Below are positions 3,643 through 54,300 of a stretch of DNA of 64,000 bases, piece by piece. Location of the stretch: NCBI GenBank assembly GCA_964561945.1, contig CAZLQM010000002.1, forward strand, positions 13,087 to 77,086, given 5' to 3'. Each line of letters opens with the position of its first letter. The first letter of the stretch is position 1. This stretch comes from an uncultured Gammaproteobacteria bacterium (GTDB lineage Bacteria; Patescibacteriota; Microgenomatia; CAYXHB01). The notes below the pieces were generated by a model. That model ran no database searches and was not told the DNA's origin. It saw nothing but the letters and a program-made list of their open reading frames with translations. The position numbers and the translations under genes are program-made.

Positions 3643-4664
3643 ATCTCATTAACTTCTAATCTTCCTAAACACTCTTCAATTAATTGATTTGCAAACACAT
3701 CTCTTCTCAACTCACTTGCATAATAATTATAGTCATCTTTATGCCTGGCCAGTTCCTTCCTCAAACCAGCAGATTCCACAAACACAGGATCACTCGCACT
3801 ACCTACACTATAATTTTGAATATAAACCCGCCCATCATCATATCTAAATTTTACAAATCTTTCATTCTCCACATCCCCCTTACCTGCTCTTAACGCCACC
3901 TCAATTATTTGTCCATTAATTATTAACTCCAACTTAGCACTCACACCAAACCCCTTCCCAAAAGATTTATCAACATGAGACAAATCTGAAGCTTCGATCA
4001 ATTTCCAAGCTACACTCCCTCTGGTCCTTGCCCATGTTGAACCTATATCCAACAAGTGAAACCCCAAATCTAACTCAGGCCCAACCTCCAAGTATGGATG
4101 ACTTCCTTGTTTCCAAATCCGATCAATTACATACTGATAATACTCACTTCCCTCAATCAGGCTCATCTCAATTGATATAGGCAACTTACCTTGAGGTAAC
4201 TGCTCATACAATATGTCTGCTCTTCCATTGGCGTATTTCCCAGCCAAATGAAACTTAATTAATCCATCATCCATAACAAACTTTTTATACTTTTCCAAAT
4301 CTTGTGAGTTATCAGCATAAGGTTTTTCTACAAAAATCCGCATAGATAACTTTTTCTCTACTAAAGCCTCAATTATCCCTAATCTATCCCGAGGCGGAAT
4401 TACCAACGCTATTTCAATGTTCTCACTTTTAACCCATTTGCAAATCACATCCACCGTCTGAGCCACCCCACTTGTTCGCTCATAATCCCAATTTCCATTA
4501 CCTAGCTCTTCTAATACTTCATCTTTGGGTTCCAATCCCAAAATCCTCACAATCCGCACCAATCCTTCACGATTTGCCCTGGTCCAATATTTACCAACCA
4601 CCTGCCCCGCTCCTACCAATATAAAACTCAATGGCTCAAATTCAACCTTATCATCACCATACAT
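3591..4664 (-). CDS. Gfo/Idh/MocA-family NAD(P)-dependent oxidoreductase
   Basis: N-terminal Rossmann ILVGAGQVVGKY and the family-typical VEKPYA motif. Confidence 0.55.
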   Translation of the reverse strand: MYGDDKVEFEPLSFILVGAGQVVGKYWTRANREGLVRIVRILGLEPKDEVLEELGNGNWDYERTSGVAQTVDVICKWVKSENIEIALVIPPRDRLGIIEALVEKKLSMRIFVEKPYADNSQDLEKYKKFVMDDGLIKFHLAGKYANGRADILYEQLPQGKLPISIEMSLIEGSEYYQYVIDRIWKQGSHPYLEVGPELDLGFHLLDIGSTWARTRGSVAWKLIEASDLSHVDKSFGKGFGVSAKLELIINGQIIEVALRAGKGDVENERFVKFRYDDGRVYIQNYSVGSASDPVFVESAGLRKELARHKDDYNYYASELRRDVFANQLIEECLGRLEVNEICLRMKEMRLARDLSGE

Positions 4665-5002: not shown

Positions 5003-5075
5003 TGGTTGCGGGGCCGGGAGTCGAACCCGGCCTGAGAGATTATGAGCCTCTCGTGCAGCCGTACACTACCCCGCA
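5003..5075 (-). tRNA. tRNA with CAU anticodon (Met-type; possibly tRNA-Ile2/lysidine or initiator), encodes 3' CCA
   Basis: Manual fold gives acceptor UGCGGGG/CCCCGCA (U1:A72), D-stem GUGU/GCAC, anticodon stem AGAGG/UCUCU, loop CUCAUAA and T-arm CCGGG-UUCGACU-CCCGG. It lacks the 3 G:C anticodon-stem pairs typical of initiator tRNA. Confidence 0.8.
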
Positions 5076-5141: not shown

Positions 5142-5214
5142 GGCTACGTAGCTCAGGGGCAGAGCGGACGTTTCATAAGCGTCATGTCGGAAGTTCGAAT
5201 CTTCCCGTAGCCAC
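5142..5214 (+). tRNA. tRNA-Met (CAU), elongator type
   Basis: GGCUACGUAGCUCAG 5' end matches E. coli elongator tRNA-Met. Acceptor is GGCUACG/CGUAGCC, anticodon loop UUCAUAA and T-arm GGAAG-UUCGAAU-CUUCC. Confidence 0.85.
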
Positions 5215-5218
5215 AACA

Positions 5219-5521
5219 CTACTCCTGATCCTCCACCACCTTGGGCACATTCTCAGGCATAATCAACACTGTTTCGCCTTCTTTAACCATATTCAGCGTA
5301 TCTCTAGCTTGTTCCTCAATAAACTTATCAGTCTTGGCTTTTTCTACTTCCTTTTGCAATTTTACCCGTTCTCGACCCTCAGCTTTTACTCCCAACTCTA
5401 ATGCCTCAAGTGAATCATTAGCTTTTTTTTGAACCTCGATATTTCGCACCAGTAAAACTATAAGATAAATAAAAATCCCCAAAACTAATCCCAATTTAAT
5501 TAATTTTCTCTTCATAAACAA
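5219..5521 (-). CDS. septum formation initiator family protein (FtsB/DivIC-like)
   Basis: 100 aa with an N-terminal TM, a coiled-coil and the C-terminal ARDTLNMVKEGETVLI motif typical of FtsB/DivIC. Confidence 0.5.
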   Translation of the reverse strand: MFMKRKLIKLGLVLGIFIYLIVLLVRNIEVQKKANDSLEALELGVKAEGRERVKLQKEVEKAKTDKFIEEQARDTLNMVKEGETVLIMPENVPKVVEDQE

Positions 5522-5783
5522 ATTTTAACTAACATTATTATTACACATCACTTCCAATCAAATATATAAATTTTTATTCCAAATCATACATCTTGAATAT
5601 GCATAAACACTACTATATAAATAAATATCTTTTCATATAACTAATTTAATCCAATAAATTCTAACTTCAACTCATACTATTAAACTCAAAATCATTTTAG
5701 TACTAACCAACCCTTGCAAAATATTATAAGACTCTATATAATCGGCAATTGCTTCACAAATAAGCAAACAACTCATTAAAACT

Positions 5784-6683
5784 ATGGATAAAAAAACCCA
5801 AAAACAACCCCAAGAATCTCTCCTTGAGCTTCAACAGGCCCACAAAGAATTCGTCAAACATCTCCAAGGACTTAATCGATCCACCTCTACTGTGCTTGCC
5901 TACGGCAAAGACATTGATCAACTAATCGAATTTGTCCTCAAAGAACACCAAATCAACCAAGCTGATAAAATCGAACCCCAACATCTCAATGCCTTCAAAG
6001 ATTTTCTCAATAGCACCGGATACACAGCCAAAAGTATCTCACGAAAAATTAATTCTATTAAAACTTTTTTCCGCTATCTCAAACAACAAACAGGCCTAGC
6101 TCTAAACCCCGCCGAAAACGTCAAACACCCCAAATACGAAACCAAAGCTCCTCGCATCCTCACCCAACTAGAATATCGAGCCCTTAGAGATGCGGCTCGT
6201 GGCGACATCCGTACCGCAGCCATCATCGAAATCTTGCTTCAAACAGGTATTCGCATCGGAGAGCTTTCACTCCTCAAACTCCAGCACTTACACAAAGATC
6301 AGCTTGAAGTTCCACCTTACGAATCTCAACCAGGTCGAACTGTTCCCCTAAATCAAGCAGCTCAAACTGCAATCGAAAATTGGCTCCAGATTCGTCCCAA
6401 TGGTAAACCTAACGACTATCTATTCGTCACCAAAAACAATCGTGCTCTCTTGGTTCGCAACATCCGCACTTCAATTAATCGATACTTCAGACTAGCAGGC
6501 ATCAAGGACGCCAAAGTCAACGACCTCCGCCACACTTGGATTGCAACTCACCTTGCCAACGGAGCTTCCCTCGTCTATATCTCCAGCCTTGCAGGCCACA
6601 AACGCCTTTCCACCACCGAAAAATACCTAAACTTCATCAAAGACAAATTCTCCTCCGCTTCTCACAAACTCCGCGAACTATAA
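5784..6683 (+). CDS. tyrosine site-specific recombinase, XerC/XerD family
   Basis: N-terminal SAM-like core-binding domain. C-terminal catalytic region LRHTWIATHLANGASLVYISSLAGHKRLSTTEKYLNF carries the R...H-x-x-R...Y signature. Confidence 0.85.
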   Translation: MDKKTQKQPQESLLELQQAHKEFVKHLQGLNRSTSTVLAYGKDIDQLIEFVLKEHQINQADKIEPQHLNAFKDFLNSTGYTAKSISRKINSIKTFFRYLKQQTGLALNPAENVKHPKYETKAPRILTQLEYRALRDAARGDIRTAAIIEILLQTGIRIGELSLLKLQHLHKDQLEVPPYESQPGRTVPLNQAAQTAIENWLQIRPNGKPNDYLFVTKNNRALLVRNIRTSINRYFRLAGIKDAKVNDLRHTWIATHLANGASLVYISSLAGHKRLSTTEKYLNFIKDKFSSASHKLREL

Positions 6684-6686: not shown

Positions 6687-7487
6687 ATGGGAGGCAAAGA
6701 CCATCGCCCCATTGCTTTTGAAATAGCTCGAGATATTTTAATCGAAACAAAACAAGGTCTAATTGAGGTACCTCCTCAATTCTCTACTACTGAAATTGCA
6801 GTTCTTATTCCTCCCAGGATTGACAATCAACTCTGTGACATCTGCTGGCAAATTCAATCCACCGCCCCAAACCAACCACACCAAACTACTCCCATAGCGT
6901 CTGGAAATGAGCAAGACATCGAACGCATTTTAGATACACATTGGCAATTAAATTATTCACACAGGATGCAAAAATGTCATAGATTTTTACAAGAACTTGA
7001 CCCACCCCATTCTCCCCAATTAGCACGCCAAGCCAATTTCCCACCATCTATTACAGCTCAAACTTCTCATTACCGAATAGCTACCCTAACCCCATCACAT
7101 GAGCTTAAAATCGAGCCACTCCAAGACCAATTAATAATTGATATCCAATGGGGCACTCTATCCCAAGATTTTCCCAACTCAATCATAGGACCAACTGAAC
7201 CCAACCTCCCATCAGACGAAAAACCCAATCTTCAATCCCGACTCCGAGCACTCAGCCCAAAAGCTAACTTTCACACCCCATTTCTTCCTCCTTTTTATAC
7301 TCATCAATCATTCCAAACATTTGCTCATGATTCAGATTCATTAAATCACCAAATAGAATCACTCAAAGAACCACATATCAGCATCTCTCATCTCCCCAAA
7401 GACGGTGATCCCACAACCAATACCCGAATAACTTTAACTTCTAATCTCACCCCGCTTAATCCCAAACCCCTCCACCATCGCCGTTAA
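6687..7487 (+). CDS. hypothetical P/Q/T-rich protein (doubtful)
   Basis: ORF starts 4 nt after the recombinase. Composition is driven by the C+A-rich + strand, with no motifs. It could be a real lagging-strand gene or spurious. Confidence 0.25.
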   Translation: MGGKDHRPIAFEIARDILIETKQGLIEVPPQFSTTEIAVLIPPRIDNQLCDICWQIQSTAPNQPHQTTPIASGNEQDIERILDTHWQLNYSHRMQKCHRFLQELDPPHSPQLARQANFPPSITAQTSHYRIATLTPSHELKIEPLQDQLIIDIQWGTLSQDFPNSIIGPTEPNLPSDEKPNLQSRLRALSPKANFHTPFLPPFYTHQSFQTFAHDSDSLNHQIESLKEPHISISHLPKDGDPTTNTRITLTSNLTPLNPKPLHHRR

Positions 7488-7672
7488 CATTGTCACCAAT
7501 TAGAAATAGCCAATTAATACCAGATCCCTCGCTCCGCTCTGGATGATAAACAATTTCATATCAAGTCAAAAACCATCGCTGCAACTATCGTCATTCAGAG
7601 AATATCTTCCGGCATCCGAGAAATCTCATTATTTAACAAATCTCTCAGTCTCCTTCTATAACATATTATTGT

Positions 7673-7913
7673 GTCCCCTCCCCAGATGGGAACAACCAAG
7701 ACATCTGACTTCATCCAAGATGAAATAACCTTCCCTTTAGCGGATCGAGTCAGTTGCAAAGCAACTCACACACAACATCAGCTCGTATCTCAGTGCCCCC
7801 AGCTGGGAACAACCAAGACATCTGACTTCATCCAAGATGAAATAACCTTCCCTTTAGCGGATCAAGTCAGTTGCAAAGCAACTCACACACGACATCAGCT
7901 CGTATCTCAGTGC
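7673..7913. repeat. two tandem ~120-bp direct repeats, each beginning with a degenerate copy of the 3' ~35 nt of the adjacent tRNA-Ile
   Basis: 7677-7795 and 7796-7912 differ at only ~3 positions. Each unit starts ccccag(a/c)tgggAACAACCAaGACATCTGACTT, paralleling the tRNA segment cccccagatgggTTCGAACCAtcGACATCTGACTT at 7913-7947. Confidence 0.85.
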
Positions 7914-7982
7914 CCCCAGATGGGTTCGAACCATCGACATCTGACTTATAAGATCAGCGCTCTGCCACTGAGCTATAGGGGC
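7911..7982 (-). tRNA. tRNA-Ile with UAU anticodon (reads AUA)
   Basis: Manual fold gives acceptor GCCCCUA/UGGGGGC, D-arm GCUC-AGUGGCA-GAGC, anticodon stem CUGAU/GUCAG, loop CUUAUAA and T-arm GAUGG-UUCGAAC-CCAUC. The ORF-track +ORF 7671..8069 is spurious. Confidence 0.8.
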
Positions 7983-8093
7983 AATGAACATATTTTAACA
8001 CTTACGTTTCCCATCACGAACCTGCCAAAACACTTGCCTCAGTTTAATACACGTTCACGAATTCAATGACCTTTTTGCGTCATTGCCACATTT

Positions 8094-8735
8094 CTAATCC
8101 CCATAATCCTCCGCAAACCCAAACTCTCCTGACTGATATAAAGCAGGATCCAAAAAACTAAAACCAGTAATCCCCCTCCTACTAATTTCATTTCGTAAAT
8201 CATCCCTCATTAAAGTCAGAAACACATCGTTGCAAACAAACATCGGTCTATGTTCAAAATTATCTAAATCTAATACCAAAATAGGAATTCCCTTATCAAA
8301 ATCCACCCATTTTGATTTTTGCTTATCCATTGCATCCAAATTCGGCTCCAAAAGATGGAAAACGTAATACTCCATATCTTTTAATTCATTTTCTCCCTTG
8401 TCGACCATACGAACTGGGAAAGTTTCAAACTTAACTCCAAATTCACGAACTAAATCAACCAATCTCTTAGAAAACAAACTAAATCCAGTATACGTAGCAT
8501 AATTATCCACAAGTCTATGCTTAGGATTTACCATAAACGTTAATTTCAAATCCACACCATATGGTTTAGTTTGACGTGGACTCTGAATAAAAACTCGGTC
8601 CTCTCCTTCACCACAATAATACTGCCTCTCATCTCTACCTGTTGGAGTCATCAATTTTGCTACAATTTCGCTTTTACCATGCAAATATATCCTTGTCCGA
8701 CAAATCCAATAACCTCTTTCCACCAACTCATCCAT
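8094..8735 (-). CDS. hypothetical protein
   Basis: 213-aa ORF with host-like composition and no recognisable motifs. Confidence 0.4.
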   Translation of the reverse strand: MDELVERGYWICRTRIYLHGKSEIVAKLMTPTGRDERQYYCGEGEDRVFIQSPRQTKPYGVDLKLTFMVNPKHRLVDNYATYTGFSLFSKRLVDLVREFGVKFETFPVRMVDKGENELKDMEYYVFHLLEPNLDAMDKQKSKWVDFDKGIPILVLDLDNFEHRPMFVCNDVFLTLMRDDLRNEISRRGITGFSFLDPALYQSGEFGFAEDYGD

Positions 8736-8795: not shown

Positions 8796-9845
8796 CTATT
8801 CCCCACTCGTCTTGGGATCCTTATCGTTTTCTATACCTTCTTTTTTATCCAATCTTCCAACCAATTCAGGCAAAATCTCCTGACAATTTCCCAGTACAAG
8901 CCCATCCTCATTTCCCAAAAAATTTGGGGTTTCTTTATTCACCGATATAATCTGCACATCTCTGTTGTGTTCTTTAAAATATTCTAGAATCGCCCGATCA
9001 TCATGACTCAGTCCCACCACTAATATCATCTTCGTTCCTGGCGTTCGCAAGATTACTTGCCCAAATGCAGCTGCATCACTATCCATATGTGTAACCTTCA
9101 ATCGACTCCCATCAGCTTCATGTTTCAAATCAATATTCTCCGTCATCACCAAAGTCCCAGGTTTTTGACGCACGAGTTCTGCAATCGCTTTATGTGCTTC
9201 TGTAGATTCATCCGCGAACAACTGATCTCCAAATTCCCGGACCCTATCGAGCAATTCCTCAGGATTATCACGGAAAATCTCACCAAAATTTTTTCCTTCA
9301 CCATTTCCGGCTAAACCCAACTGCAACTGTAATTCTCCCATTCCCCAGACTGGTTTTTCACCGGACATAGAAATTCCCGCCCCTGTGTACACCACAATTT
9401 CCTCACCCCGCAGTTTCCCCAACTTCTCAGCCAGTTCCTTAACAATTATCTGCTTGACTTCCTTCTGATCTTCAATCTTTCGTGGCTTCAAGCCATCAAT
9501 ACAATAACTTCCCGCTTCCTGGGATCCTTGCTTAGCATCTCCTCCTTGATCCTCTGGCAGACTTTCCCTTCTGGGAAAACTTACGACCAACCCTTCTTCA
9601 GAGATTTCATACTTTTCATCAAATCCCAAACCTCTCGCATCTACCGCAATTGTCATCCCCACCTGCCCCTTTCCATCATTAACTTCAAAAAAACAATTTT
9701 CTCCTGTAGCCTTATTTCCAAAATTAAACCTGCAATATCTAGGCAACTGACCAAACTCTTCCTGACTAATCTCTTTAGTCATAGGAAACAGCAACTCTCC
9801 TGCCTTACTTTGATTAACCGAACTTTCAACTTTACCGTCTTCCAT
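8796..9845 (-). CDS. SIR2-like (sirtuin/DHS-like NAD-binding fold) domain protein with unknown N-terminal domain
   Basis: VVYTGAGISMSG (GAGIS Rossmann motif), EAHKAIAELV...TLVMTENIDLKHEADGS...KVTHMDS (TQNIDxLH..HG-like block, His retained) and ILVVGLSHDD (VxGTS-like). No Zn-binding Cys pairs. Confidence 0.45.
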   Translation of the reverse strand: MEDGKVESSVNQSKAGELLFPMTKEISQEEFGQLPRYCRFNFGNKATGENCFFEVNDGKGQVGMTIAVDARGLGFDEKYEISEEGLVVSFPRRESLPEDQGGDAKQGSQEAGSYCIDGLKPRKIEDQKEVKQIIVKELAEKLGKLRGEEIVVYTGAGISMSGEKPVWGMGELQLQLGLAGNGEGKNFGEIFRDNPEELLDRVREFGDQLFADESTEAHKAIAELVRQKPGTLVMTENIDLKHEADGSRLKVTHMDSDAAAFGQVILRTPGTKMILVVGLSHDDRAILEYFKEHNRDVQIISVNKETPNFLGNEDGLVLGNCQEILPELVGRLDKKEGIENDKDPKTSGE

Positions 9846-9857
9846 ATCACCATATTA

Positions 9858-12233
9858 CTACAAATGACTTCTTCTATTAATTTCCATCTCCACTTCCTCC
9901 CGATCTCTCCCATATTTCAACTTTGATAACTCCGCAATCATCGCTCCCACCTCAGGATTTTTCTCTCGAGCATCCTGTTCCAAATCCTTAGTCGTATCCA
10001 TACTAAAAGGTGGCACGGGCGCATTATTTACCATCGTACTCACATATGCATTAAATTTATCTACATTTATCAAATCATCCTCACTAAATACTCCGCGGAA
10101 CTCCTGTGCCAAAAATGGCGCATCTTCAATTCCCACTCTAAACATCACTTTAGTTCCTACATTACCAAAAATAGCACTCTTAATCTCAGGATCCATCTGC
10201 CCCGTAAACTGATTAGCCACAGTCAAATTAAGGTGATATTTACGAGCCTCAGCCAAAATCGTCACAAAATCTGGCGTAGCGAAATTCTGAAATTCATCCA
10301 CATACAGATGAAAATCCGGTCTTTGATCCTCAGGGACATCTGCTCGACTCAAAGCGGACATCAACAGCTTCGGCACCAACAATAATCCCAAGAAATTCGC
10401 ATTCATCTCTCCCAAAGCTCCTTTATTTAATCTCACAATCAAAATTTTCTTCTCATCCATGATCTGTCGGAAATTAAACGTACTTTCACTCTGACAAATA
10501 ATATTCCTCATCATCTTATTCGTCACAAACGGTCCAAACTTACTCACAATGTAATCCAACACCTCAGATTTATGGAAATCGGCCGTTTGAGCAATTTGAT
10601 CAGTCCAATATCTCCTCACCACAGGGTCTTTGACTTTAGGCAGTAGCTCCTGCACATACCTCATATCGGTTTGCAACCTTACGATCTCCATAAAAGTCCC
10701 GCCAGGCACAGCTTCCATCACCGTCAACATCGAGTTACGAATTGCATGCTCGAATCTCGGTCCCACAATTCCAGTCTTGTGCGGATCATATAACTTATAC
10801 ATCAAATTTATTACCACACTGGTCACAAAATGCCGTTCGTCCTCCGTCTTAGCATCCATAATATTCATTCCCATTGGTCTCTCCATATCAGCAGGATCGA
10901 AGAAAATCACATCTTCAGCTCTCTCTGGTGGAATATAATCTAATATCTGTTCAGCCAAATCATGAGGATCCACCACCGCTACTCCCTTACCTTCGCGAAT
11001 ATCTTGAATGATCATGGTTTTCATAAATTCAGTCTTACCCATACCAGTTTTCCCAATAATATACATATGTCGTTGGCGATCTTTCTCACGAATCGTCACA
11101 GGTCGTTCTACTCCGCGGAAAATACTCTTCCCTAAATAAAGTCCATCAACTGGAATCAACGGGGATGCTGGTGCTGACTTAGAAGTTAACCAATTAATAT
11201 TTGGTGTTTCTACTGTCTTGTTTGGGAAATGATACAAACTCGCCACCTCATCTACTGACAAAACCGATGCCTTACTCGAAAGATGTAACATCCGTGGATA
11301 ACGGTAAATAAAATCAGTCATAAAAGTCTGCGGAATCCATACTTTCTGCTCACTAAACCGATTATGTCCTGAATTAAATTGTTCAAATGAACCTTTTATG
11401 TTAGCCAAATGCTGTTTAGCTTGTTCTTGCGTGTCCGACACTACAACCAACCTCACTGTCACTTCAAACCCAGGCTTAGATAATTTATTATCCACCGCTT
11501 CTAACAATCTTGAATCCACCTTATAACTAGCTTTTTGAGGATCAGATTCTTTCTTCTTAGTATCAGAAATAAAACTCTTCCCTGCTTTTTTCCAGTCGCC
11601 CCCAATTCCAGTTAACAAAATCTGAATTACAGCTGACTCACGAGGACCCATTTTCCCCAAAGCACTCGTCACTGCACTCATTGTATCAACTGGCAAATCT
11701 TTATAGGTTCTAATTGGTTTGTATGTTGGATCAGCCAACCCCAACTGCGCCCAAGCTACTTCACCCTGCTCCTCAAAAATACTATATTCCTCCACTGCCC
11801 TCACATCAGCCCCATTATATGCACTATGAATTTGTTTCTCAATCAAATCATGCAAATGCTCTGGCACACTCAAATAATATGTAATATCACCATAACGAGC
11901 CACAATCTCCAAACTAATATGCTCTGGCGGTTGTGTAGAAAATATTCCTTTAGTCTTTTTAAGCACATTCAAAGAAGACAATATCTGCTCCATTGCATCA
12001 ACCTTAACCTCATTATCTCTTGGCACCCTTACTTGCAACAGAACCGTCTTCAACGATCGACTCTCCCGATCCTTCCATCTCTGCCACCATATAAAACCAA
12101 ATAACCCGCCCAGCATCAATCCCACCACCACAGCCACACCCAACAACAATCCCAACAAACCAAACACGATAGTCAACAAAGAGTCCATATTCCTATATTG
12201 TACACGCAAAACCCTTCCAAACTCACCTTCCAA
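9858..12233 (-). CDS. membrane-anchored FtsK/HerA-superfamily P-loop ATPase (VirB4/VirD4/HerA-like)
   Basis: N-terminal hydrophobic segment. Walker A IIGKTGMGKT is followed by VAVVDPHD (the DPxG[DE] feature of HerA/T4SS ATPases). Walker B is HLYVDEFQNF. Length 791 aa. Confidence 0.6.
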   Translation of the reverse strand: MEGEFGRVLRVQYRNMDSLLTIVFGLLGLLLGVAVVVGLMLGGLFGFIWWQRWKDRESRSLKTVLLQVRVPRDNEVKVDAMEQILSSLNVLKKTKGIFSTQPPEHISLEIVARYGDITYYLSVPEHLHDLIEKQIHSAYNGADVRAVEEYSIFEEQGEVAWAQLGLADPTYKPIRTYKDLPVDTMSAVTSALGKMGPRESAVIQILLTGIGGDWKKAGKSFISDTKKKESDPQKASYKVDSRLLEAVDNKLSKPGFEVTVRLVVVSDTQEQAKQHLANIKGSFEQFNSGHNRFSEQKVWIPQTFMTDFIYRYPRMLHLSSKASVLSVDEVASLYHFPNKTVETPNINWLTSKSAPASPLIPVDGLYLGKSIFRGVERPVTIREKDRQRHMYIIGKTGMGKTEFMKTMIIQDIREGKGVAVVDPHDLAEQILDYIPPERAEDVIFFDPADMERPMGMNIMDAKTEDERHFVTSVVINLMYKLYDPHKTGIVGPRFEHAIRNSMLTVMEAVPGGTFMEIVRLQTDMRYVQELLPKVKDPVVRRYWTDQIAQTADFHKSEVLDYIVSKFGPFVTNKMMRNIICQSESTFNFRQIMDEKKILIVRLNKGALGEMNANFLGLLLVPKLLMSALSRADVPEDQRPDFHLYVDEFQNFATPDFVTILAEARKYHLNLTVANQFTGQMDPEIKSAIFGNVGTKVMFRVGIEDAPFLAQEFRGVFSEDDLINVDKFNAYVSTMVNNAPVPPFSMDTTKDLEQDAREKNPEVGAMIAELSKLKYGRDREEVEMEINRRSHL

Positions 12234-12245
12234 AATACTTATTTC

Positions 12246-12587
12246 TCAACCCTTAAAGAAAGTCCTTGCCCCGTATTTTTTGATCATGTAAGTGCACCAC
12301 ACCGCCATCCATTTAGCGCTACTCTCCACTTGAGCAGCCAATCCTTGATGGAAACTCTGCTGAGTCGTTGGCAAAACCACAGCATCTTGCGGTAACTGAA
12401 AATCATCATTTTTAACCACCAACGAATCATCATTATCTTGTCCTGCCTGACCATCATCGTCATTACTAGGACCTTGAACGTCACCTTTTTCAACTTCCTC
12501 CAAATAATCATCTACCTCATTATTTTTCTCATAATCAACTGACTCAATACTATCTCGTCTAGTTTCAACTGGTATTTGCTCTGCCAT
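12246..12587 (-). CDS. hypothetical acidic protein
   Basis: 113 aa, D/E-rich. It sits 12 nt upstream of the ATPase in the same orientation. Confidence 0.3.
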   Translation of the reverse strand: MAEQIPVETRRDSIESVDYEKNNEVDDYLEEVEKGDVQGPSNDDDGQAGQDNDDSLVVKNDDFQLPQDAVVLPTTQQSFHQGLAAQVESSAKWMAVWCTYMIKKYGARTFFKG

Positions 12588-12647: not shown

Positions 12648-13343
12648 CTATTTGTCATTCTGCCACACCTGCTCTTTTTCTTGACAAACCCAAGCCGTGT
12701 ATCTTGCCATTACAAATAACCAATCACCCAATCTATTCAAATAAGGCAACCACCCCAACGCATACTCAGGAACTATCTCTCTAGTTCCACCACTATTTGA
12801 CTGCACTAATCTAACCATAGTTCGCTCTACCCTTCGCAACAATGATCTACTCACATGCAAAACAGCTCCCCCCACACCTCCACCAGGCAGTATGAAATTC
12901 TCTAATGTCGGCAAACTCTGCTCATAATCATCAATACTTTTCTCCATAGCACCAGTTCTCCCTAACCACTTATTTGCTTGCTGAACATAGTTTTCATCTG
13001 ACACCCCAGCCGTTTTTTTTTCATAAGTTTCCACTCTCCCTGATGCTGAAGGTCTTGCTATTTGCAATTTATTACTTGCCACTTGCGCTCCCAATTCTAA
13101 CAACTCACCCTGCACTTTCGTTAACTGTTTAACAACCAAACCCAAATCATCTCTCCGTGTATTATCTCCCATTTCTTCATACGTCGACGCCAAACTTTCG
13201 ATCACGCTAACCCCAAAGCCAATCTGACAATTCAATTCATCCAACTCACCCAACACCGCCACTTGCAATGACCCCTTCGACACTCGCTCACCCTGCCGCA
13301 AACTTGTCATCCCCTGATCCCCTGCTCGTGTATAGATTGCCAT
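12648..13343 (-). CDS. ATP:cob(I)alamin adenosyltransferase, PduO/MMAB type
   Basis: MAIYTRAGDQGMTSLRQGERVSKGSLQVAVLGELDELNCQIG matches the PduO-type N-terminal signature. Confidence 0.8.
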   Translation of the reverse strand: MAIYTRAGDQGMTSLRQGERVSKGSLQVAVLGELDELNCQIGFGVSVIESLASTYEEMGDNTRRDDLGLVVKQLTKVQGELLELGAQVASNKLQIARPSASGRVETYEKKTAGVSDENYVQQANKWLGRTGAMEKSIDDYEQSLPTLENFILPGGGVGGAVLHVSRSLLRRVERTMVRLVQSNSGGTREIVPEYALGWLPYLNRLGDWLFVMARYTAWVCQEKEQVWQNDK

Positions 13344-15394: not shown

Positions 15395-17719
15395 TTACAT
15401 CGTACACTTACTCCAACCACACTGTGGACAGCTCACGCATCCATCTCGATAAATCGCCCCAGCTCCACATTCTTCACACACCACAGCATCTCCACTTCCG
15501 GGTTTTATAGCTTGCACACCAACAGTCTCAACTTTGGCAACCAAATCCACACTCTTCACTTCTTCTTTTTTCAAACTTTTTGGCTTAGCCAAATTCAAAA
15601 CCTGATCCTGCTTACTCCCATCTCGATAAATAGTAATACCCTTACACCCCAATCGCCATGCTTGTAAATAAGCTTCCTTCACGTCCTCAACACTTGCCTC
15701 ATTAGCAAAATTAATTGTTTTACTAATCGAATTATCAAACCATTTCTGCCATGCAGCTTGGATCTGCACATGCCAAGTTGGCTTAATCTCATGTGTCGTT
15801 ACAAACACCTTATACACCCATTCAGGCAAACCTCTCACTCCATGCAAACCTTCTTCTGCCACAACTGTTAATAAATCATCCACTGATAATATTTTCTCTC
15901 CACTGCTTCTTACAACTTTCTTCAAATCAAGATTATTAACTACTCCCTCAAAAACAGGATCTACAATCATAAACTCACGAGTTGGCTTATTATCTCTATT
16001 GTCTTCATTGAAAACCCGCTTCAAAGTCACCAACGAAAATACGGGCTCAATTCCACTCGAAGTGTTAGCTAACATACTTATAGTTCCAGTCGGAGCAATC
16101 ATCGTCAATGCGCAATTACGATACCGCTCCGCGCTCCCAGCGTATACCGAAATATCGAAATGAGGAAATACTCCTCTAATCCTAGCTAGTTCCAAACTCA
16201 TTTCTTCTGCATTTTTCTGAATAAACTTAGCAATCCTGCCTGCCAAACTCACGGCTTCTTTAGAGTTATAAGGAATCTTCATCATATAAAGCATATGGGC
16301 AAATCCCATAACTCCAAGTCCGATCCTTCTATTCCCATTTTTAACCATATCCTCAATTTCCTTCAAAGCATACGTATTCACCTCAATCATATTATCCAAA
16401 AATCTAATCCCCACTTTCACCGAACGTGCCAAATCGTCCCAATCAATCTCATATTTATCATCTCCATCTTCACTTTTATTAATCAAATGATTATGCAAAA
16501 TAATACTCGTCAAATTACAAGACTCATAAGGCAAAAGTGGAATTTCTCCACACGGATTAGTCGCATTCAAAGCTCCCAACGTCGGCGTTGGATTATCCTC
16601 TTCCAACCGATCCAAAAAAGCCAACCCAGGATCTCCTCCAATCCAAGCATGCTCCACAATTGTCGCAAACAACCGTTTAGCACTCACACGTCGAGTTATC
16701 TCTCCTGTCCTTGGATTAACCAAATTCCACATCTTATCTTCCAATACAGCCTCCATAAATGCGTCTGTAACCCCCACGCTAATATTAAAATTCTTAATGG
16801 TTCCATCCTCATCCTTCATCGTAATAAATTCTTCAATATCAGGATGATCCACATTCAAAATCGCAATGTTTGCTCCCTGTCTTTTAGCTCCCTGCAAAAT
16901 CTGTCCCAATACTGCCGAATACGCTTTGATAAAGCCTACCGGCCCAGTTGCTGCCCCAGGGACATTACGTACTTTATCACCCTGTGGTCGAATCTTGCTA
17001 AAATTAAACCCTGTCCCTCCATTATTTTTATGCACCACAGCAGCATCTCCCAAAGTCTTAAAAATCCTTGCAATATTATCCTCGATCGGCAGCACAAAAC
17101 AGCTTGACAACTGACCCGTACCCCCAGGGTTGCCTGCCTCAAACATCGCTTTACCAGCACATACGAACTTCCAATTAACCAATCTCTCATAAAACGCTCC
17201 CGTAGTTTCATCATACTCACCATTATTTGACCAGTTTAGCTCTGCCTTAGCCATGTGTCTTGCCACCCGCCAAAACATTTCACCCAAACTCTCAATCACT
17301 TCACCTTTCATATTAGTTCTCAGATACCTCTTCCGTGCAATCTCCATTCCCATTGGTGAAATTTCTGGCTCAACAATCTCTTTGTTATGTTTATCTTTTT
17401 GATGCTTCCTCTCTCCAAACAATATATAATACTTTGCGGTTTGGAAAAATCCCCCATGAGCCATTGCCGGCTCCACAACGTCCCTAATTTGCGCGCTACT
17501 CACTTCTCTTAAACCCAGTTTATCCAATGATTCTCTAATTTCTTTCAAAATTATTTTTGCTTCCTTCTCTCCATAAGCCTTGGTGTCTTTTCCTGCTTTA
17601 ACCACACTTTTAACTATCTTTTCCCAATCAAAATTATCCTTTTTCCCCGAGCGCTTTATAACAAATTCAATTCCTCTATCTTTTGCAGTCTTAGAAATTT
17701 GTTTCATCATAGCAACCAT
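15395..17719 (-). CDS. nrdJ: class II adenosylcobalamin-dependent ribonucleotide reductase with N-terminal ATP-cone and C-terminal Zn-ribbon
   Basis: ATP-cone (EFVIKRSGKKDNFDWEKIVKSV), active site NPCGEIPLLPYESCNLTSI and C-terminal CEECG...CPQCG. Confidence 0.9.
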   Translation of the reverse strand: MVAMMKQISKTAKDRGIEFVIKRSGKKDNFDWEKIVKSVVKAGKDTKAYGEKEAKIILKEIRESLDKLGLREVSSAQIRDVVEPAMAHGGFFQTAKYYILFGERKHQKDKHNKEIVEPEISPMGMEIARKRYLRTNMKGEVIESLGEMFWRVARHMAKAELNWSNNGEYDETTGAFYERLVNWKFVCAGKAMFEAGNPGGTGQLSSCFVLPIEDNIARIFKTLGDAAVVHKNNGGTGFNFSKIRPQGDKVRNVPGAATGPVGFIKAYSAVLGQILQGAKRQGANIAILNVDHPDIEEFITMKDEDGTIKNFNISVGVTDAFMEAVLEDKMWNLVNPRTGEITRRVSAKRLFATIVEHAWIGGDPGLAFLDRLEEDNPTPTLGALNATNPCGEIPLLPYESCNLTSIILHNHLINKSEDGDDKYEIDWDDLARSVKVGIRFLDNMIEVNTYALKEIEDMVKNGNRRIGLGVMGFAHMLYMMKIPYNSKEAVSLAGRIAKFIQKNAEEMSLELARIRGVFPHFDISVYAGSAERYRNCALTMIAPTGTISMLANTSSGIEPVFSLVTLKRVFNEDNRDNKPTREFMIVDPVFEGVVNNLDLKKVVRSSGEKILSVDDLLTVVAEEGLHGVRGLPEWVYKVFVTTHEIKPTWHVQIQAAWQKWFDNSISKTINFANEASVEDVKEAYLQAWRLGCKGITIYRDGSKQDQVLNLAKPKSLKKEEVKSVDLVAKVETVGVQAIKPGSGDAVVCEECGAGAIYRDGCVSCPQCGWSKCTM

Positions 17720-17754: not shown

Positions 17755-20313
17755 CTAACACTGCGCAAAACCGCAGCTATAGCACTTGGCACAACCTTCT
17801 TCATGTACTAGACTGGCAGTCCCACACTCAGGACAAATATCCCCCACAGACCTCTCACTAACATCCGCTTCTTCCAACGGTACACCACTCCCATCAATAG
17901 TTAACTGGACTTTAGTTTCATTAATTAAACTATCTTTTTTACCATTCAAATCTCCATCCCCAGAACCTATAAAACCCATATCGATCGCCAGCGCTTTCGC
18001 CAACGCATCAGGCAAAGACATCACCTTACTATGGCCAAATCCCACAGGCCTCATTCCTCCGATCCCCTTTAGTTGATCAATCACTAACTCAGCTCGTTCT
18101 TTAGAACTTAATCCCACAGCTGATTTCAAGTATTTAGAAATTATTCGCCCCAATGCCTCAGCCATAGCCTGCACATCAGATCCAGCTCTTCCTATATTTA
18201 TAAACAACTCAATTGGCGAACCATTTTCGTCTCGATTAACAGTTATCCAAGCGGTTCCCACTGGGGTCTTCAGTTTATACGTCCTTCCAGACATTACCAT
18301 AGGACGTATCCACTGTTTCACTTCAGCAATTTCTTCTTTAACCTTACTACTTACAACCTCATCTGTTTTCTTATCTTCATCTCTTATCAAAGTCCCCTCT
18401 CTTGATCCATCTCGCATATAAGACACTCCCTTACATCCCAATTCAAAGGCCAATGTATATAAATTCTTTACATCTTCTACACTATGAGAATTAGGAGCAT
18501 TAACTGTTTTACTAATTGAAGAATCTGTATATTTTTGAATTAGAGCCTGAATCTTTACATGCTCTTCAGGACTTAAATCATCAGCAACTGTAAAATAATC
18601 AGGTATATTTTCTTTACCATTTTCATTAATCCACTTTTCATACAACGGATGATACATCATCCGCGTTCCCAACCTATCCTTTTGAGTATATGAAAACGAA
18701 AACACTGGTTCTATCCCGCTAGAAACCCCTGCCAAAAGCGAAATCTTTCCCGTCGGCGCTTGCGTTAACAACAATGCATTTCTAACTCCGTAATTTCTAA
18801 TTTTCTCGCGTATCGCTTCTGGCATCGTTTGCATAAAACCGCTTTGCAAATACAACTCACTATTAAACATCGCAAAACTTCCCTTTTCATTTGCCAAATC
18901 CGCCGAAGTTTCATAAGCCACGTCTCTCATCAATTTATAGATCTTCTCAACTATCTCCAATGACTCTTTTGATCCATATCGAACTTTCATCTTAATCAAA
19001 GCATCAGCCAACCCCGTTGTCCCCAATCCCACTCTTCTTTCTCTTTTCTGAACTTTTTCTATAGATTTATATAAATACTTCTCTGCATCAACTGCATCAT
19101 CCAAAAACCTCACCCCAATCGCTGTCACTTTAGCCAATTCTTCATAATCAAACTTACCACTATCATCCACAAACGCCGCCAAATTAACACTACTCAAATT
19201 ACACACCCCCCAAGCAGGCAAACCTTGTTCTCCACATGGATTAGTTGCAATATTTTTCTCAAAATACCAAGTATTATTCATCGTATTATATCGATCCATA
19301 AACACCACTCCAGGCTCAGCGCTCGCCCATGCCGATTCACAAATCTTATCCCACAGCTCTCTTGCTTTAATCGTTTTATACACAATCACTCCATATCCTT
19401 TAGCTCTCCAATCTTCAATATCCCCCCTCCACTCAGATTTATAATTATCATCCTCACAATCAGCAAAAACCAAATCCCAATCATCATCATTCTTAACAGC
19501 TTCCATAAATTTATCCGACACACACACACTTAAATTAGCTCCCAAGATTTTATTCTGATCTTTCTTCACACTTATAAATTCCTCAATATCGGGATGCCAA
19601 TCCCAGAGCATTATCATCAAAGCCCCCCTTCTCGTCCCACCCTGCTGGATAATATCATGGGCTGCCACCGAATAAAGATTTGCCCAACTCACAGCTCCAC
19701 TACTTGTTCCATTGACTGTCTTAACGTACGAACCTCTGGGCCTCAACGAGGATAAATTAAACCCTACTCCTCCCCCTCTGGCACTTATCTCAGTCATATG
19801 CTCAAGCGTCTTAATTATTCCCTTGCGTGAGTCAATCGGACTAGGAATCACAAAACAATTAATCATCGTTGAATCCAACCCCGTCCCTGCCGTCGTCAAA
19901 AACCTGCCAGCCGGCAAGAATCTAAAATCCTCCATCGCCCCATAAAACTTCTCCTCCCATTCTTTTCTTAACTCAGAAGTATTCTCTACCTGCGCCACTC
20001 CCCAAGCCACTCGTCGCCACATCTGCTCTACAAATTTTTCTCGCACCTCCCCCTTATCATCCTTCATCGAATACCGATCTAAAAATAACTTCCGTCGAAT
20101 TCCTTCAAGTTCAGTTCCTTGATCCATATCTACGAAATGGGCTTCTTTACGCCAACTCTCATCACGATCCTGACTCACGACCTCAGTCTGTAAACTTGAA
20201 TTCTTCGCATTAAAAATTTCTTTCTTTACACCACCCAATCCATTAACTTGTCTATTCATATTGTTTCTATTTCTTTTCCAGTTACGACTGCGAATATAAG
20301 TTTGATTAACCAT
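17755..20313 (-). CDS. nrdJ: second class II ribonucleotide reductase paralog
   Basis: NPCGEQGLPAWGVCNLSSVNL, C-terminal CPECG...CYSCG, 852 aa. Confidence 0.9.
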   Translation of the reverse strand: MVNQTYIRSRNWKRNRNNMNRQVNGLGGVKKEIFNAKNSSLQTEVVSQDRDESWRKEAHFVDMDQGTELEGIRRKLFLDRYSMKDDKGEVREKFVEQMWRRVAWGVAQVENTSELRKEWEEKFYGAMEDFRFLPAGRFLTTAGTGLDSTMINCFVIPSPIDSRKGIIKTLEHMTEISARGGGVGFNLSSLRPRGSYVKTVNGTSSGAVSWANLYSVAAHDIIQQGGTRRGALMIMLWDWHPDIEEFISVKKDQNKILGANLSVCVSDKFMEAVKNDDDWDLVFADCEDDNYKSEWRGDIEDWRAKGYGVIVYKTIKARELWDKICESAWASAEPGVVFMDRYNTMNNTWYFEKNIATNPCGEQGLPAWGVCNLSSVNLAAFVDDSGKFDYEELAKVTAIGVRFLDDAVDAEKYLYKSIEKVQKRERRVGLGTTGLADALIKMKVRYGSKESLEIVEKIYKLMRDVAYETSADLANEKGSFAMFNSELYLQSGFMQTMPEAIREKIRNYGVRNALLLTQAPTGKISLLAGVSSGIEPVFSFSYTQKDRLGTRMMYHPLYEKWINENGKENIPDYFTVADDLSPEEHVKIQALIQKYTDSSISKTVNAPNSHSVEDVKNLYTLAFELGCKGVSYMRDGSREGTLIRDEDKKTDEVVSSKVKEEIAEVKQWIRPMVMSGRTYKLKTPVGTAWITVNRDENGSPIELFINIGRAGSDVQAMAEALGRIISKYLKSAVGLSSKERAELVIDQLKGIGGMRPVGFGHSKVMSLPDALAKALAIDMGFIGSGDGDLNGKKDSLINETKVQLTIDGSGVPLEEADVSERSVGDICPECGTASLVHEEGCAKCYSCGFAQC

Positions 20314-51263: not shown

Positions 51264-51303
51264 ATCGTATTTTAGTAATTATTACTAAACTCAACACATA
51301 AGG

Positions 51304-54300
51304 CTATTTCTCTCCCGTCCAATCGCGGGCTAACAATTCTGCTTGCTCCAACATCGTCTTGGTTGCACTTTCCTGTTTATCTGGTGGATATTTGTACTTC
51401 TTCAACAACCGTTTTACATAAACTCGCAACCTAGCTTGAATACTCTCCTTAATCGTCCAGTCTATTGTTGTATTCTTGCGAAGCATCACCACCAACTCTT
51501 TAGCCATTGCCTTCAAGGTTTCATCTCCCAACTCTCGCACGGCACTCTCGTTGTTAGCTAGTGCATCATAAAAAGCCACTTCATCCTCAGTTAATCCCAA
51601 ATCTTCACCTTTGTTTTTCTCTGTCTTAATCTTCTTGGCCAGCTCTAACAATTCGGCAATAACCTGAGCTGCTTCAAGTGTGCGGTTTTGGTATTTCCTA
51701 ATCGTTTCCGCCAGCATTTCGGCAAAAGATCGAGACTTCACCAAATTGGTTCTTTCCATCATCTTTAATTCGTCATTCAAGAGTTTCTTTAACAGTTCCA
51801 AGGCCACGTTCTTGTGTTTCAAATTCTTCACTTCCTCTAAAAATTCCTCAGAGAAAATAGAAATGTCGGGAGCTTTGATGCCAGCTGCCGAGTAAATATC
51901 AACCACCGCATCAGAAGTCACCGCCGTTGAGACGATTTGTTTGATAGCTGCATCATAATCTTCATCTGTCGGGCCTCCTCCATGAGGTTCCATTTTGACT
52001 AATCCACTCTTAACAATCTGGAAGAATCCCACCTCGTCTTTAATCTCCAATGCCTTGTCGTGTGGTACTGCCAAAGAGAATGACTTAGATAGTTCAGTCA
52101 CCGCTTTCAAGTATCGTTTCTTTCCATCTGTTAACCCCAAAACAAAATCTGTAGCTCCCGAAATAACCTGAGTTCGCTCACCAGGAGTACCAGTAAAGTA
52201 TTTTTGATAGTCATATCCATGCAACATTCCCTTAACCACTTCATACTTTTCCATCAACACCGCCACCGCTTCATCCTGTGGGATAGCTGTTTCTTGTCTA
52301 TCGGTTTCGCTGTAGTAGGAGAGGGCTTCCTTCAGTTCAGGAGCAATGCCAATATAGTCAACGATCAAACCACCTTGCTTATCCTTATACACTCGATTCA
52401 CCCGAGCAATCGCTTGCATCAACCCATGCCCCTTCATCGGTTTGTCTACATACATAGTATGAAGAGAGGGCACGTCAAAACCAGTTAGCCACATGTCTCT
52501 TACGATCACCAACTTCAACTCATCCTCAGGATCTTTCATTCTTCGAGCCATTTCATCGAGTGCATGTTTAGGGCGAATGTGAGGCTGGAAGTTCATCGGA
52601 TCGGCAGCACTGCCTGTCATCACAACCTTGATAAACCCCTTGTTATCATCATCACTATGCCAATTGGGGCGAAGTTTAACAATCTCGTTATACAAATCCA
52701 CCGCAATTCTACGACTCATGGCCACGATCATACCCTTACCATCAATGGCTGATAATCTGTTCTCAAAGTGATCCACTAAGTCACGAGCTACCAAAGCAAT
52801 TCGTTTTTCCGATCCCACCATTGCTTCCAACCTTGCCCACTTACTCTTCAGTTTTTCCTTTCGCTCAACCTCTTCACCCTCGGTTAATTCTTCAAATTCT
52901 GGATCAATTCTTGGCTGTTCTTCTTTCTTCAATTCAATTCTGGCAAGTCTAGCTTCGTAATAGATCGGTACGGTAGCATTATCTTCAACTGCTCGTGTCA
53001 CATCATAAACATCAACATATTCACCAAACACTGCCCGAGTATTCCTATCCGTTAATTCAACAGGTGTACCAGTAAAACCAATAAACGAAGCGTTAGGTAG
53101 AGCATCACGCAAATGACGAGCAAACCCAGTGATAAATTCATACTGGCTTCGATGTGCCTCATCCGCAATCACCACAATGTTTTTCCGATCAGACAACATG
53201 GGGTATGAAGTATGGCCATTTTGAGGTAGAAACTTTTGGATAGTGGTAAAGATAACCCCACCAGAGGCTACATGTAGTAATTCTTGTAACTGTTCTCGAC
53301 TATCAGCTTGCTTGGGGGTTTGCCTAAGCAATTCACTACATCGAGAGAAAGTACCGAAAAGCTGTTGATCCAAGTCATTGCGATCCGTCAACACAACTAA
53401 AGTCGGATTGTTTAGCTCCTGCACCACTTTGCCTGAATAAAACACCATTGTTAGACTTTTACCTGATCCCTGCGTATGCCACACCACACCAGCCCGCCTG
53501 TCTCCCTCCTCTTTGGTAGCCTTCATAGTACTTTCGACTGCTTTATTAGTCGCATAGTATTGATGATAAGCCGCTGCCTTCTTGATAGTTTTATCGCCAT
53601 CCGTATCAAAGACAATAAAGTTTGAGATCAAATCCAGTAAACGACTCTTATCAAAAATTCCTTTAAGTAAGACTTCCAACTGTGGCAAGGCAGTAGGGGC
53701 AAGTTCTTCACCATCAACAGTTCGCCAACGAGTAAACCATTCGATACTTGCCGATATTGTACCCACTCGAGCATCAATTCCGTCACTGATGACGCAAAGT
53801 TCGTTATAGGCAAAGAGGGTAGGAATATCTTGTTTGTAGGTTTGAATCTGGTTGTAGGCGTTTTTTACTGTTGCCTTCTCATCCCCAGGATTCTTCAATT
53901 CAATCACCACTACAGGCAAACCATTCACAAACACTATTACATCTGGCCGTCTGTTGCGGTTGTTTTCAATGATCGTATATTGATTGACTGCCAAAAAGTC
54001 ATTTGATTCTAAATCCCCAAACTCAGCCAATTTCACCTTATCGCCAGCCACCGAGCCATCATCCCGCATGTATTCAACATCCACCCCATCACGCAAGTAT
54101 CCATGAAAGATCTTGTTGTTCATTACTAAACTAGGGGTGGCGTGGGCAACCTGCACCACCTTCTTAAATGCTTCTTCCTTGGCATCTTCGGGAATATCTG
54201 GGTTGAACTTGTTGATAGCACTTCGAAGTCTATCTACCAACACCACATCACCATAGCTCTCACGTTCTGGGTTCTCACCGTCCGGAGGAGGGGCAATCTC

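Follow-up and report, generated by a model that had tools for sequence, protein, structure and literature searches.

In the SIR2-HerA (Nezha) system, a gene for a SIR2-fold protein adjoins a gene for an ATPase of the ASCE/FtsK-HerA superfamily, and the two co-occur in a conserved operon. The SIR2 protein forms a 12/14-mer on a HerA hexamer and is an NADase activated by assembly, and its partner is a soluble HerA protein composed of a beta-barrel and a RecA-like core. The catalytic set of this SIR2 protein is N163/D165/H212 (PMC11472057). A similar adjacency occurs in the 64-kb stretch of DNA shown above (hereafter the window, in whose numbering all coordinates are given unless another locus is named), in which a gene for a 349-aa SIR2-like protein follows a gene for a membrane-anchored ATPase within a row of four consecutive genes on the - strand (Table 1). 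The best explanation of this locus, to which a probability of about 0.72 is assigned, is that the two genes are unrelated and are chance neighbours within one shallow Patescibacteria (Microgenomatia-like) lineage, without forming a functional pair.

The folds and families of both proteins were identified, and each protein has described relatives of its own. The ATPase has in common with the type IV coupling proteins (T4CPs) VirD4, TraD, TrwB, and DotL an N-terminal membrane anchor and a P-loop motor with GxTGxGKT, DPxD, and DEFQN motifs. In Patescibacteria, 5,713 VirD4-type T4CP homologues occur in 2,918 of 3,035 genomes, only 148 of them are located near virB4, exaptation was raised as a possibility, and the homologue in Ca. 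Southlakia epibionticum is non-essential (PMC12102498). The nearest relatives of the SIR2-like protein in sequence and structure are the class III/U deacylases (Sir2-Af1/Af2, CobB, SIRT5, and PfSir2A). A further point of reference is the class M sirtuin SirTM, in which the catalytic His is replaced and which ADP-ribosylates instead of deacylating (PMC4518038).

A first-pass annotation of the window had described the order of a small acidic protein, the ATPase and, 12 nt further on, the 349-aa protein, the ATPase motifs GKTGMGKT, DPHD, and DEFQNF together with an N-terminal transmembrane segment, and the sirtuin-like blocks GAGIS, TENID, THMD, and GLS in the 349-aa protein. All of these were recovered where that annotation had placed them, apart from the start of the ATPase, which shifts to 12188. 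It had offered two readings of the adjacency, namely a divergent defence pair or a translocation ATPase with a SIR2-like partner. The former is not supported by the comparative data or by PADLOC, which returned nothing for the SIR2-like protein, and of the latter the part concerning the partner falls away, as described below.

Comparative linkage of the ATPase and SIR2-like genes

Six syntenic genomes, with ATPase identities of 60-91%, share with the window a backbone composed of a VWA protein, a cobalamin adenosyltransferase (CobAT), the small acidic protein, the ATPase, an Xer recombinase encoded on the opposite strand, and DivIC. The SIR2-like gene follows the ATPase gene in none of the six. 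Between the ATPase and Xer genes lie a DUF2164 gene (81 aa) in L040 (ATPase identity 91%), about 1 kb without a called gene in L041 (74%), a PadR gene and a 165-aa gene in L006 (73%), a 176-aa gene and small open reading frames (ORFs) in L007 (66%), and nothing in L042 (72%) and L008 (60%). The only compared relative in which the SIR2-like and 213-aa genes follow the ATPase gene is L001 (97.6%), and the SIR2-like gene is therefore assigned to a variable slot between the ATPase and Xer genes. The 213-aa gene follows the SIR2-like gene in L001, L002, L004, and L005 only, a pairing confined to the genome of the window and the nearest relative. For the 213-aa protein, nothing was found in PDB, PADLOC, or PHROGs, and the sole Pfam match was Imm43 with a non-significant E-value of 0.097; its identification as an immunity protein was rejected on these grounds. 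The slot also contains a 266-aa ORF downstream of Xer, which has no PHROG match and no homologue in the other compared loci.

The converse comparison covered 29 further loci of the SIR2-like family, corresponding to about 27 independent ones (L018 duplicates L011 and L027 duplicates L016), of which 14 extend at least 2.4 kb upstream, far enough to reveal an adjacent ATPase gene. The ATPase gene adjoins the SIR2-like gene in none of the ~27 independent loci. In the Moranbacteria contig L016, a 42%-identical ATPase is encoded 6.8 kb upstream of the SIR2-like gene with five ORFs in between, a distance that is compatible with chance because about two such genes occur per ~1-Mb genome. An all-against-all BLAST comparison of the flanking ORFs of the 29 loci gave no recurrent neighbours of the SIR2-like gene beyond the synteny of near-identical contigs and a generic transporter-like cluster. 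The survey of related genomes that the first-pass annotation had proposed shows that the ATPase and SIR2-like genes are not conserved together.

The two genes also contrast in evolutionary rate. Between the window and L001, the synonymous divergence of the flanking genes is ~0.9-1.2, and the ratio of nonsynonymous to synonymous substitution rates (dN/dS) is 0.013 for the ATPase (97.6% amino acid identity at about one synonymous substitution per site), 0.038 for the adenosyltransferase (91.8%), 0.063 for the VWA protein (89.7%), 0.15 for the 113-aa acidic protein (78.8%), and 0.36 for the 213-aa protein (59.1%). The SIR2-like protein is only 54.8% identical, with a dN of 0.38 and a saturated dS for which dN/dS is not computable, and the third-position identity of its gene is 0.43 versus 0.63-0.65 in the neighbouring genes. 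Within this protein, the N-terminal domain (47% identity) has changed more than the SIR2 domain (61%). A tight co-evolving complex of the SIR2-like protein with so constrained an ATPase is unlikely, and the rates are in keeping with an accessory gene on which selection is relaxed or diversifying, or with allelic replacement.

The GC content (0.43) and GC skew (-0.45) of the SIR2-like gene are those of its neighbouring genes, whereas the skew of a defence island located elsewhere in the window is only -0.11 to -0.23, and the earlier statement that the composition is host-like and that the gene was not recently acquired can be upheld. A recent transfer or mobile-element origin of the slot was considered and rejected because the composition is fully host-like and the SIR2-like and 213-aa genes are not bracketed by direct repeats. 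The only repeat present is a 117-nt unit in tandem duplicate (97% identity), which lies in the variable slot, abuts the 3' end of the tRNA-Ile(TAT) gene, and gives rise to a repetitive + strand ORF.

Some points weigh against the interpretation as chance neighbours. The context sample is modest, with ~27 independent loci of which many are short. The loci were retrieved with two peptide patterns derived from a 16-sequence alignment, which biases the sample toward the closer subfamily. Finally, the SIR2-like gene starts 12 nt past the ATPase stop and no terminator-like site was found between the two genes, from which they are probably co-transcribed here, and a lineage-specific functional link may exist. 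Under the favoured explanation, the SIR2-like gene would be an accessory, fast-evolving gene that is probably co-transcribed with the ATPase gene merely through its landing site.

A sirtuin-derived family and its possible chemistry

In the 349-aa protein, the blocks GAGIS (residues 155-159), TENID (235-239), THMD (252-255), and GLSHDDR (278-284) mark a Rossmann NAD-binding domain with the GAGxS and xNxD motifs of sirtuins. NCBIfam CobB-type models match residues 147-254 with an E-value of 1.8e-10, and Sir2-Af2 was matched in PDB with E-values of 1.4e-7 by single sequence and 1.2e-14 by family profile. The CobB models remain below the NCBIfam cut-offs (40.2 versus 243 and 34.6 versus 320 bits), and Pfam SIR2 (PF02146) scores under its gathering cut-off (19.6 versus 24 bits). 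This evidence for sirtuin kinship covers the first half of the SIR2 domain, and the resemblance is more than chance.

The fold was examined with AlphaFold2. A model built from five sequences was poor, with a predicted local distance difference test (pLDDT) value of 63, and a model from an 80-sequence alignment (pLDDT 89.6, predicted template modelling score 0.88) was used instead. Structural comparison of this model gave scores of 18.7 with PfSir2A (3u31), 18.6 with Sir2-Af1 (1ici), 17.4 with SIRT1, and 14.7 with SirTM (5a3a), and lower ones with the defence proteins Avs5 (10.2), ThsA (9.9), the Paenibacillus SIR2 of SIR2-HerA (8w9l; 9.9), and E. coli HerA-Sir2 (8j4u_A; 8.6); Foldseek was consistent with this result. 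The model supports a predicted DHS-like/sirtuin NAD-binding fold located outside the defence clade, in agreement with the fold that the first-pass annotation had expected. In the model, a beta-rich N-terminal domain (residues ~23-95) is followed by an acidic low-confidence linker and the SIR2-type Rossmann domain. No relative of the N-terminal domain was detected in Pfam or PDB, and a match of its profile to a nanobody in PDB (E 0.011) was dismissed as spurious.

The protein departs from class III/U sirtuins in several features. The zinc ribbon of sirtuins, formed by two CxxC pairs, is absent; the strand with H253 and the Rossmann helix after it, whose first residue is 260, are joined by just six residues (254-259), and the only Cys residues, at positions 38, 51, 115, and 321, make a zinc ribbon impossible. 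The FR arginine of sirtuins aligns with M169, TENID replaces TQNID, and GLSHDDR replaces the GTSxxVxP segment. The equivalent of H80 of Sir2-Af1 is H218, and H253 lies one residue off in the HMMER alignment to Sir2-Af1. Further differences from class III/U are an additional N-terminal domain of ~100 aa and the lack of a conserved catalytic His in the family. SirTM, in contrast, retains the zinc domain, has an invariant Gln/Arg pair, and shares its operon with GcvH-L, LplA2, and a macrodomain protein, none of which was seen at the SIR2-like locus. The 349-aa protein thus has the sirtuin fold, lacks the zinc ribbon, falls below the curated thresholds, and is equivocal with respect to the catalytic His.

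A profile HMMER scan of 1.84 billion representatives yielded 460 proteins at E<=1e-3, of which 308 reach E<=1e-10, with lengths mostly of 310-360 aa; a word-indexed search had given only five proteins, or six with the 80-sequence profile. The named genomes with members belong to Microgenomates, Moranbacteria, Saccharimonadales, unclassified Patescibacteria, and one Woesearchaeota archaeon. Three contigs from two metagenome-assembled genomes (MAGs) bear the label 'uncultured Gammaproteobacteria'. Among them, L001 (identical to L009) is syntenic with the window and L010 stems from the MAG of L001, so that at least this MAG is evidently mislabelled. In a cluster look-up of ten representatives, nine were singletons, and the cluster of the Woesearchaeota fusion protein had two members. 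Among 80 aligned members, 62 weakly touch Pfam SIR2, and 17 also touch TPP_enzyme_M, another DHS-like domain. G155, S159, H218, N237, and D239 are invariant in these 80, and the nearly invariant positions are D282 (79/80), D283 (72/80), R284 (70/80), K291, D314, D320, and Q322. At the catalytic-His column, 34 members have H, 21 have R, and 7 have K, and of the 16 closest relatives 14 have H and 2 have R. The literature search found no paper describing this family and nothing relevant on sirtuins in Patescibacteria; no curated model reaches its threshold, and the sirtuin-derived family is so far unannotated.

The members occur in diverse settings. Some combine the SIR2-like domain in one protein with an HD domain (P0004), with a HAD acid phosphatase (P0171), or with an alpha/beta hydrolase (P0232). 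In L003 (7095-8828), the HD fusion protein (577 aa) is encoded beside DeoC, transketolase, and PfkB; in L011 (9929-12121), a gene for a LigT-type 2H-phosphoesterase overlaps the end of the SIR2-like gene, and TIM, RpiB, and Rpe genes adjoin; in L012 (2-5062), from the Woesearchaeota archaeon, the domain forms the N-terminus of a GT2-HEAT protein of 1,667-1,686 aa; and in L013, an HD gene is the neighbour. RpiB, Rpe, LOG, transketolase, and DeoC are linked in both L003 and L011, in differing arrangements. Other members sit among housekeeping genes such as those for EF-Tu, MnmA, TIM, and the pentose-phosphate enzymes.

From these features, NAD+ cleavage or ADP-ribosyl transfer can be put forward tentatively as the chemistry of the SIR2-like protein. 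NAD+ binding is suggested by the conservation of N and D of the nicotinamide pocket, of GAGIS in the pyrophosphate loop, and of GLS and D/N303 at the adenine-ribose. As a cytoplasmic member of a sirtuin-derived family, the protein keeps the NAD+ pocket (GAGIS, H218, and N237/D239); the zinc ribbon and also the FR arginine have been lost, and E236 (in TENID) and the GLSxDDR motif have been gained. It probably binds NAD+ and may then cleave it or move ADP-ribose onto a protein or small molecule, without lysine deacylation, and the N-terminal domain could act as a specificity or regulatory module that selects a target or regulator. SirTM provides a precedent for ADP-ribosylation by such a protein (PMC4518038), and products of the nucleotide or ADP-ribose type are hinted at by the HD, HAD, alpha/beta hydrolase, and GT2-HEAT fusions, the LigT and HD neighbours, and the RpiB-Rpe-LOG-transketolase-DeoC linkage. 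It is possible, at the same tentative level, that the family represents an undescribed class of minimal sirtuin-derived enzymes, so far found in ultra-small symbionts (Patescibacteria, also called the candidate phyla radiation or CPR, and one Woesearchaeota archaeon), whose members lack a zinc ribbon, can do without the catalytic His, are marked in the active site by a new TENxD/GLSxDDR signature, have an N-terminal domain of their own, and would cleave NAD+ or transfer ADP-ribose. Two observations run counter to this proposal: a His at or beside the catalytic position (H253) is kept in the window protein and 14 of its 16 close relatives, so deacylase chemistry may be possible in this subfamily, and the phosphatase and 2H-phosphoesterase associations are based on single loci or single proteins.

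An ordinary CobB-like NAD+-dependent lysine deacylase that has merely lost its zinc ribbon is the most viable of the other explanations, and it is nevertheless improbable. Its attraction lies in the retention of H253 and in the nearest relatives being class III/U deacylases. Deacylation across the family is difficult to reconcile with the loss of the zinc ribbon, which forms half of the peptide cleft, and of the FR arginine, with the charged DDR now in the acyl-lysine channel segment, and with the frequent R or K at the catalytic position; all curated cut-offs were also missed by far (e.g., 40 versus 243 bits).

A stand-alone defence NADase of the DSR-like type, whose N-terminal domain would sense a phage protein, is less probable again. 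Change concentrated in the N-terminal domain, the location in a variable slot, and a second paralogue (L010, 44% identical) in the MAG of L001 would be in keeping with such a function. Against this, the protein has no PADLOC match, no relatives were found in viral contigs, the neighbours elsewhere are housekeeping or metabolic genes and not defence islands, the composition is fully ameliorated, and the structural similarity to defence SIR2 proteins is low.

An orphan coupling-protein homologue and its conserved neighbours

Among the best 120 of more than 4,924 homologues of the ATPase, nearly all are 770-781 aa long and begin at the Met corresponding to ORF residue 16, and the likely start is therefore the ATG that gives a 776-aa protein, in place of the TTG of the 791-aa ORF. 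Kyte-Doolittle windows of 19 residues exceed 1.6 only at residues 1-36, and the Walker A, DPHD, and Walker B residues are invariant across a 26-sequence alignment, consistent with the membrane-anchored P-loop protein of the FtsK/HerA superfamily described in the first-pass annotation. That annotation had also placed the protein nearer to T4CPs than to HerA, which is corroborated by the Pfam models T4SS-DNA_transf (PF02534, 28.2 versus 20.1 bits), TrwB_AAD_bind (PF10412, 27.3 versus 20.5), and TraG-D_C (PF12696, 22.2 versus 22), all above cut-off; DUF87 is likewise above cut-off but limited to the P-loop region. NCBIfam TraD-type models match with E-values of 1.8e-16 (TIGR03743) and 3.7e-13, and the VirD4-like CD1115 model (NF045973) matches residues 382-701 (E 7.8e-11). 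PADLOC HerA models cover only ~40 residues around the P-loop (~379-423, E ~3e-4); the best PADLOC match was mad8 (E 1.9e-16), another ATPase domain of the superfamily, and DndH was also matched.

The scores of the ATPase are far under the NCBIfam equivalog cut-offs (59.7 versus 366 and 48.8 versus 647 bits), and the family profile gave only weak, P-loop-limited matches in PDB to the T4CPs DotL and TrwB (E ~1e-3). The listed homologues are ~60% identical over their full length (58-62% in Woese-, Shapiro-, Pace-, and Amesbacteria) and carry a precomputed PF26449 DUF8128 assignment in the N-terminal half; the closest ones belong to Woesebacteria, Shapirobacteria, Pacebacteria, Amesbacteria, and unclassified Patescibacteria, which identifies the window as part of a Patescibacteria chromosome, probably of the class Microgenomatia. 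No literature on DUF8128 was found. The ATPase differs from described T4CPs by ~340 residues (DUF8128) between the anchor and the P-loop, by a conserved small acidic partner gene upstream, and by its setting, in which no component of a type IV secretion system (T4SS) and no relaxase family was found among the ORFs scanned in the window. Judged by its model matches, it appears to belong to the T4CP family at the superfamily level and to be an equivalog of no characterised T4CP.

This setting agrees with the scarcity of virB4 near Patescibacteria T4CP homologues, which are likewise orphans (PMC12102498). Among findings that would count against its reading, the first-pass annotation had named an ATPase that groups with VirB4/VirD4 proteins and is accompanied elsewhere by T4SS genes; the grouping with VirD4-type proteins holds in substance. 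The ATPase is an orphan, phylum-wide VirD4/TraD-type coupling-protein homologue of an already known kind and not a HerA protein. It may assemble at the membrane as a ring that spends ATP on moving a substrate, either DNA or protein, to or across the membrane. The protein is under very strong purifying selection and is accompanied by its own conserved small acidic protein. The ATPase also matches phrog_5156 over residues 228-773 (E 3.7e-84), and therefore sequences classed as phage or prophage share its architecture; these may be Patescibacteria phages or misclassified contigs. In the Joint Genome Institute (JGI) copy of the window contig (L004, 1756-4088), the ATPase is called as one ORF of 344 aa and another of 445 aa, the reading frame changing near residue 340; this is an assembly or strain-level frameshift not present in the window.

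Homologues of the 113-aa protein were located upstream of the ATPase gene by tblastn in L001 (79% identity), L006 (45%, 4312-4581), L007 (44%, 4304-4627), and L008 (28%, 5750-5986), and L040, L041, and L042 have an unannotated 115-120-aa gene at the same position, which was not compared in sequence. The window, L001, and L008 copies share a C-terminal motif, S..W.A.WC...IK, and the protein has no match in Pfam, NCBIfam, PADLOC, or PHROG. The candidate for a partner of the ATPase is this small protein rather than the SIR2-like one. Xer occurs at the same position and orientation in all six syntenic genomes and is followed by the FtsB-like DivIC in L006, L007, L008, and L042, the sequences of L040 and L041 ending before that point; the ATPase-Xer linkage is absent from the Moranbacteria locus L016. 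From this arrangement comes the idea that the ATPase could be FtsK-like, that is, a membrane DNA pump acting with Xer at division.

A lineage-specific coupling, in which the SIR2-like protein would be a substrate or effector exported via the ATPase into the host cell of the episymbiont and the 213-aa protein its immunity protein or chaperone, ranks marginally below the defence NADase and is very improbable. T4CPs do recruit secretion substrates (PMC12102498), the three genes lie close together on a single strand, and the SIR2-like and 213-aa genes, which occur together in the window and L001, evolve fast between constrained flanks, to which the faint Imm43 match could be added. That match is not significant, however, no other family member is accompanied by a 213-aa homologue or adjoins a T4CP gene (the 6.8-kb distance in L016/L027 being compatible with chance), no T4SS channel genes occur in the window, and other members sit among housekeeping genes. 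A divergent Nezha-like abortive-infection pair, in which phage DNA detected by the ATPase would switch on a SIR2-like NADase to deplete NAD+, is scarcely credible: a SIR2-fold gene does lie 12 nt past an FtsK/HerA-superfamily ATPase gene touched by mad8 and HerA models, and fast evolution is common in defence genes, but the comparative data contradict it and the pair lacks each of the defining features of SIR2-HerA that were compared, namely the SIR2 clade with its N/D/H set (PMC11472057), the HerA architecture (the ATPase being membrane-anchored and broadly matched by T4CP models), and conserved co-occurrence.

Features of the window and biological meaning

Table 1. Positions of the genes, motifs, and other features discussed, in window numbering.
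Feature	Position	Strand	Basis or remark
tRNA-Met(CAT), first of pair	5003-5075	-	
tRNA-Met(CAT), second of pair	5142-5214	+	
DivIC	5219-5521	-	conserved chromosomal neighbour along with Xer
Xer-type tyrosine recombinase	5784-6683	+	Pfam Phage_integrase and Phage_int_SAM_1 (identical JGI contig)
266-aa ORF, variable slot	6687-7487	+	ORF list
Repetitive ORF	7671-8069	+	arises from the 117-nt duplication
117-nt unit, tandem duplicate	7680-7913		
tRNA-Ile(TAT)	7911-7982	-	
213-aa protein	8094-8735	-	
SIR2-like protein, 349 aa	8796-9845	-	ORF list
SIR2-like Rossmann domain, SIR2-type, zinc-ribbon-less, residues ~126-335	8841-9470	-	
SIR2-like family-specific GLSHDDR motif, residues 278-284	8994-9014	-	
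SIR2-like N-terminal beta-rich domain, residues ~23-95	9561-9779	-	
ATPase ORF, 791 aa from TTG at 12233	9858-12233	-	ORF list
ATPase with likely start, ATG at 12188, 776 aa	9858-12188	-	VirD4/TraD-type with N-terminal DUF8128 region
ATPase Walker B DEFQNF, residues 631-636	10281-10298	-	776-aa numbering
ATPase DPHD, residues 407-410	10959-10970	-	776-aa numbering
ATPase Walker A GKTGMGKT, residues 379-386	11031-11054	-	776-aa numbering
ATPase N-terminal hydrophobic membrane anchor, residues 1-36	12081-12188	-	Kyte-Doolittle
113-aa acidic protein	12246-12587	-	ORF list
PduO-type cobalamin adenosyltransferase	12648-13343	-	Pfam match
Large ORF, putative reductase	15395-17719	-	by eye
Large ORF, putative reductase	17755-20313	-	by eye
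Defence island (GmrSD, type I restriction-modification)	48834-59424	-	
Large serine recombinase	61115-62644	+	overlaps tRNA-Asn
tRNA-Asn	62631-62704		

Further features of the window lie outside the ATPase and SIR2-like genes. The adenosyltransferase gene neighbours two large adjacent ORFs that, by eye, resemble B12-dependent ribonucleotide reductases whose C-terminal tails are rich in Cys, and the two tRNA-Met(CAT) genes stand back to back, 66 nt apart. The defence island comprises GmrSD and a type I restriction-modification system (HsdR, HsdS, and HsdM), with a Shedu SduA_C gene and an AAA_15/AAA_21 ATPase gene between hsdR and hsdS; its low GC skew suggests that, in contrast to the SIR2-like gene, it was recently acquired. 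Over positions 1-46000, all genes have a GC skew of -0.36 to -0.51 irrespective of the coding strand, a strand asymmetry far outside the usual bacterial range, and proteins of the C-rich strand are visibly rich in P, Q, H, and T. The absolute skew is 0.34-0.43 in the closest relatives (L001, L003, L006, and L007) and 0.03-0.2 in more distant Patescibacteria.

A membrane-anchored SIR2-HerA-like system would have been notable, and the comparison averts a false call of a new defence system from adjacency. The constrained DUF8128 ATPase, its small acidic partner gene, and its fixed position beside Xer and DivIC in Microgenomatia offer handles on the role of the orphan T4CPs of Patescibacteria. The SIR2-like family breaks the sirtuin rules concerning the zinc ribbon, the catalytic His, and the FR arginine while the NAD pocket is kept, and it is thus a candidate for new NAD+ chemistry in nucleotide scavengers. 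If the proposed chemistry is true, its role may be to supply ADP-ribose or ribose-phosphate to nucleotide-salvage and pentose-phosphate metabolism, or to modify a target picked by the fast-evolving N-terminal domain.

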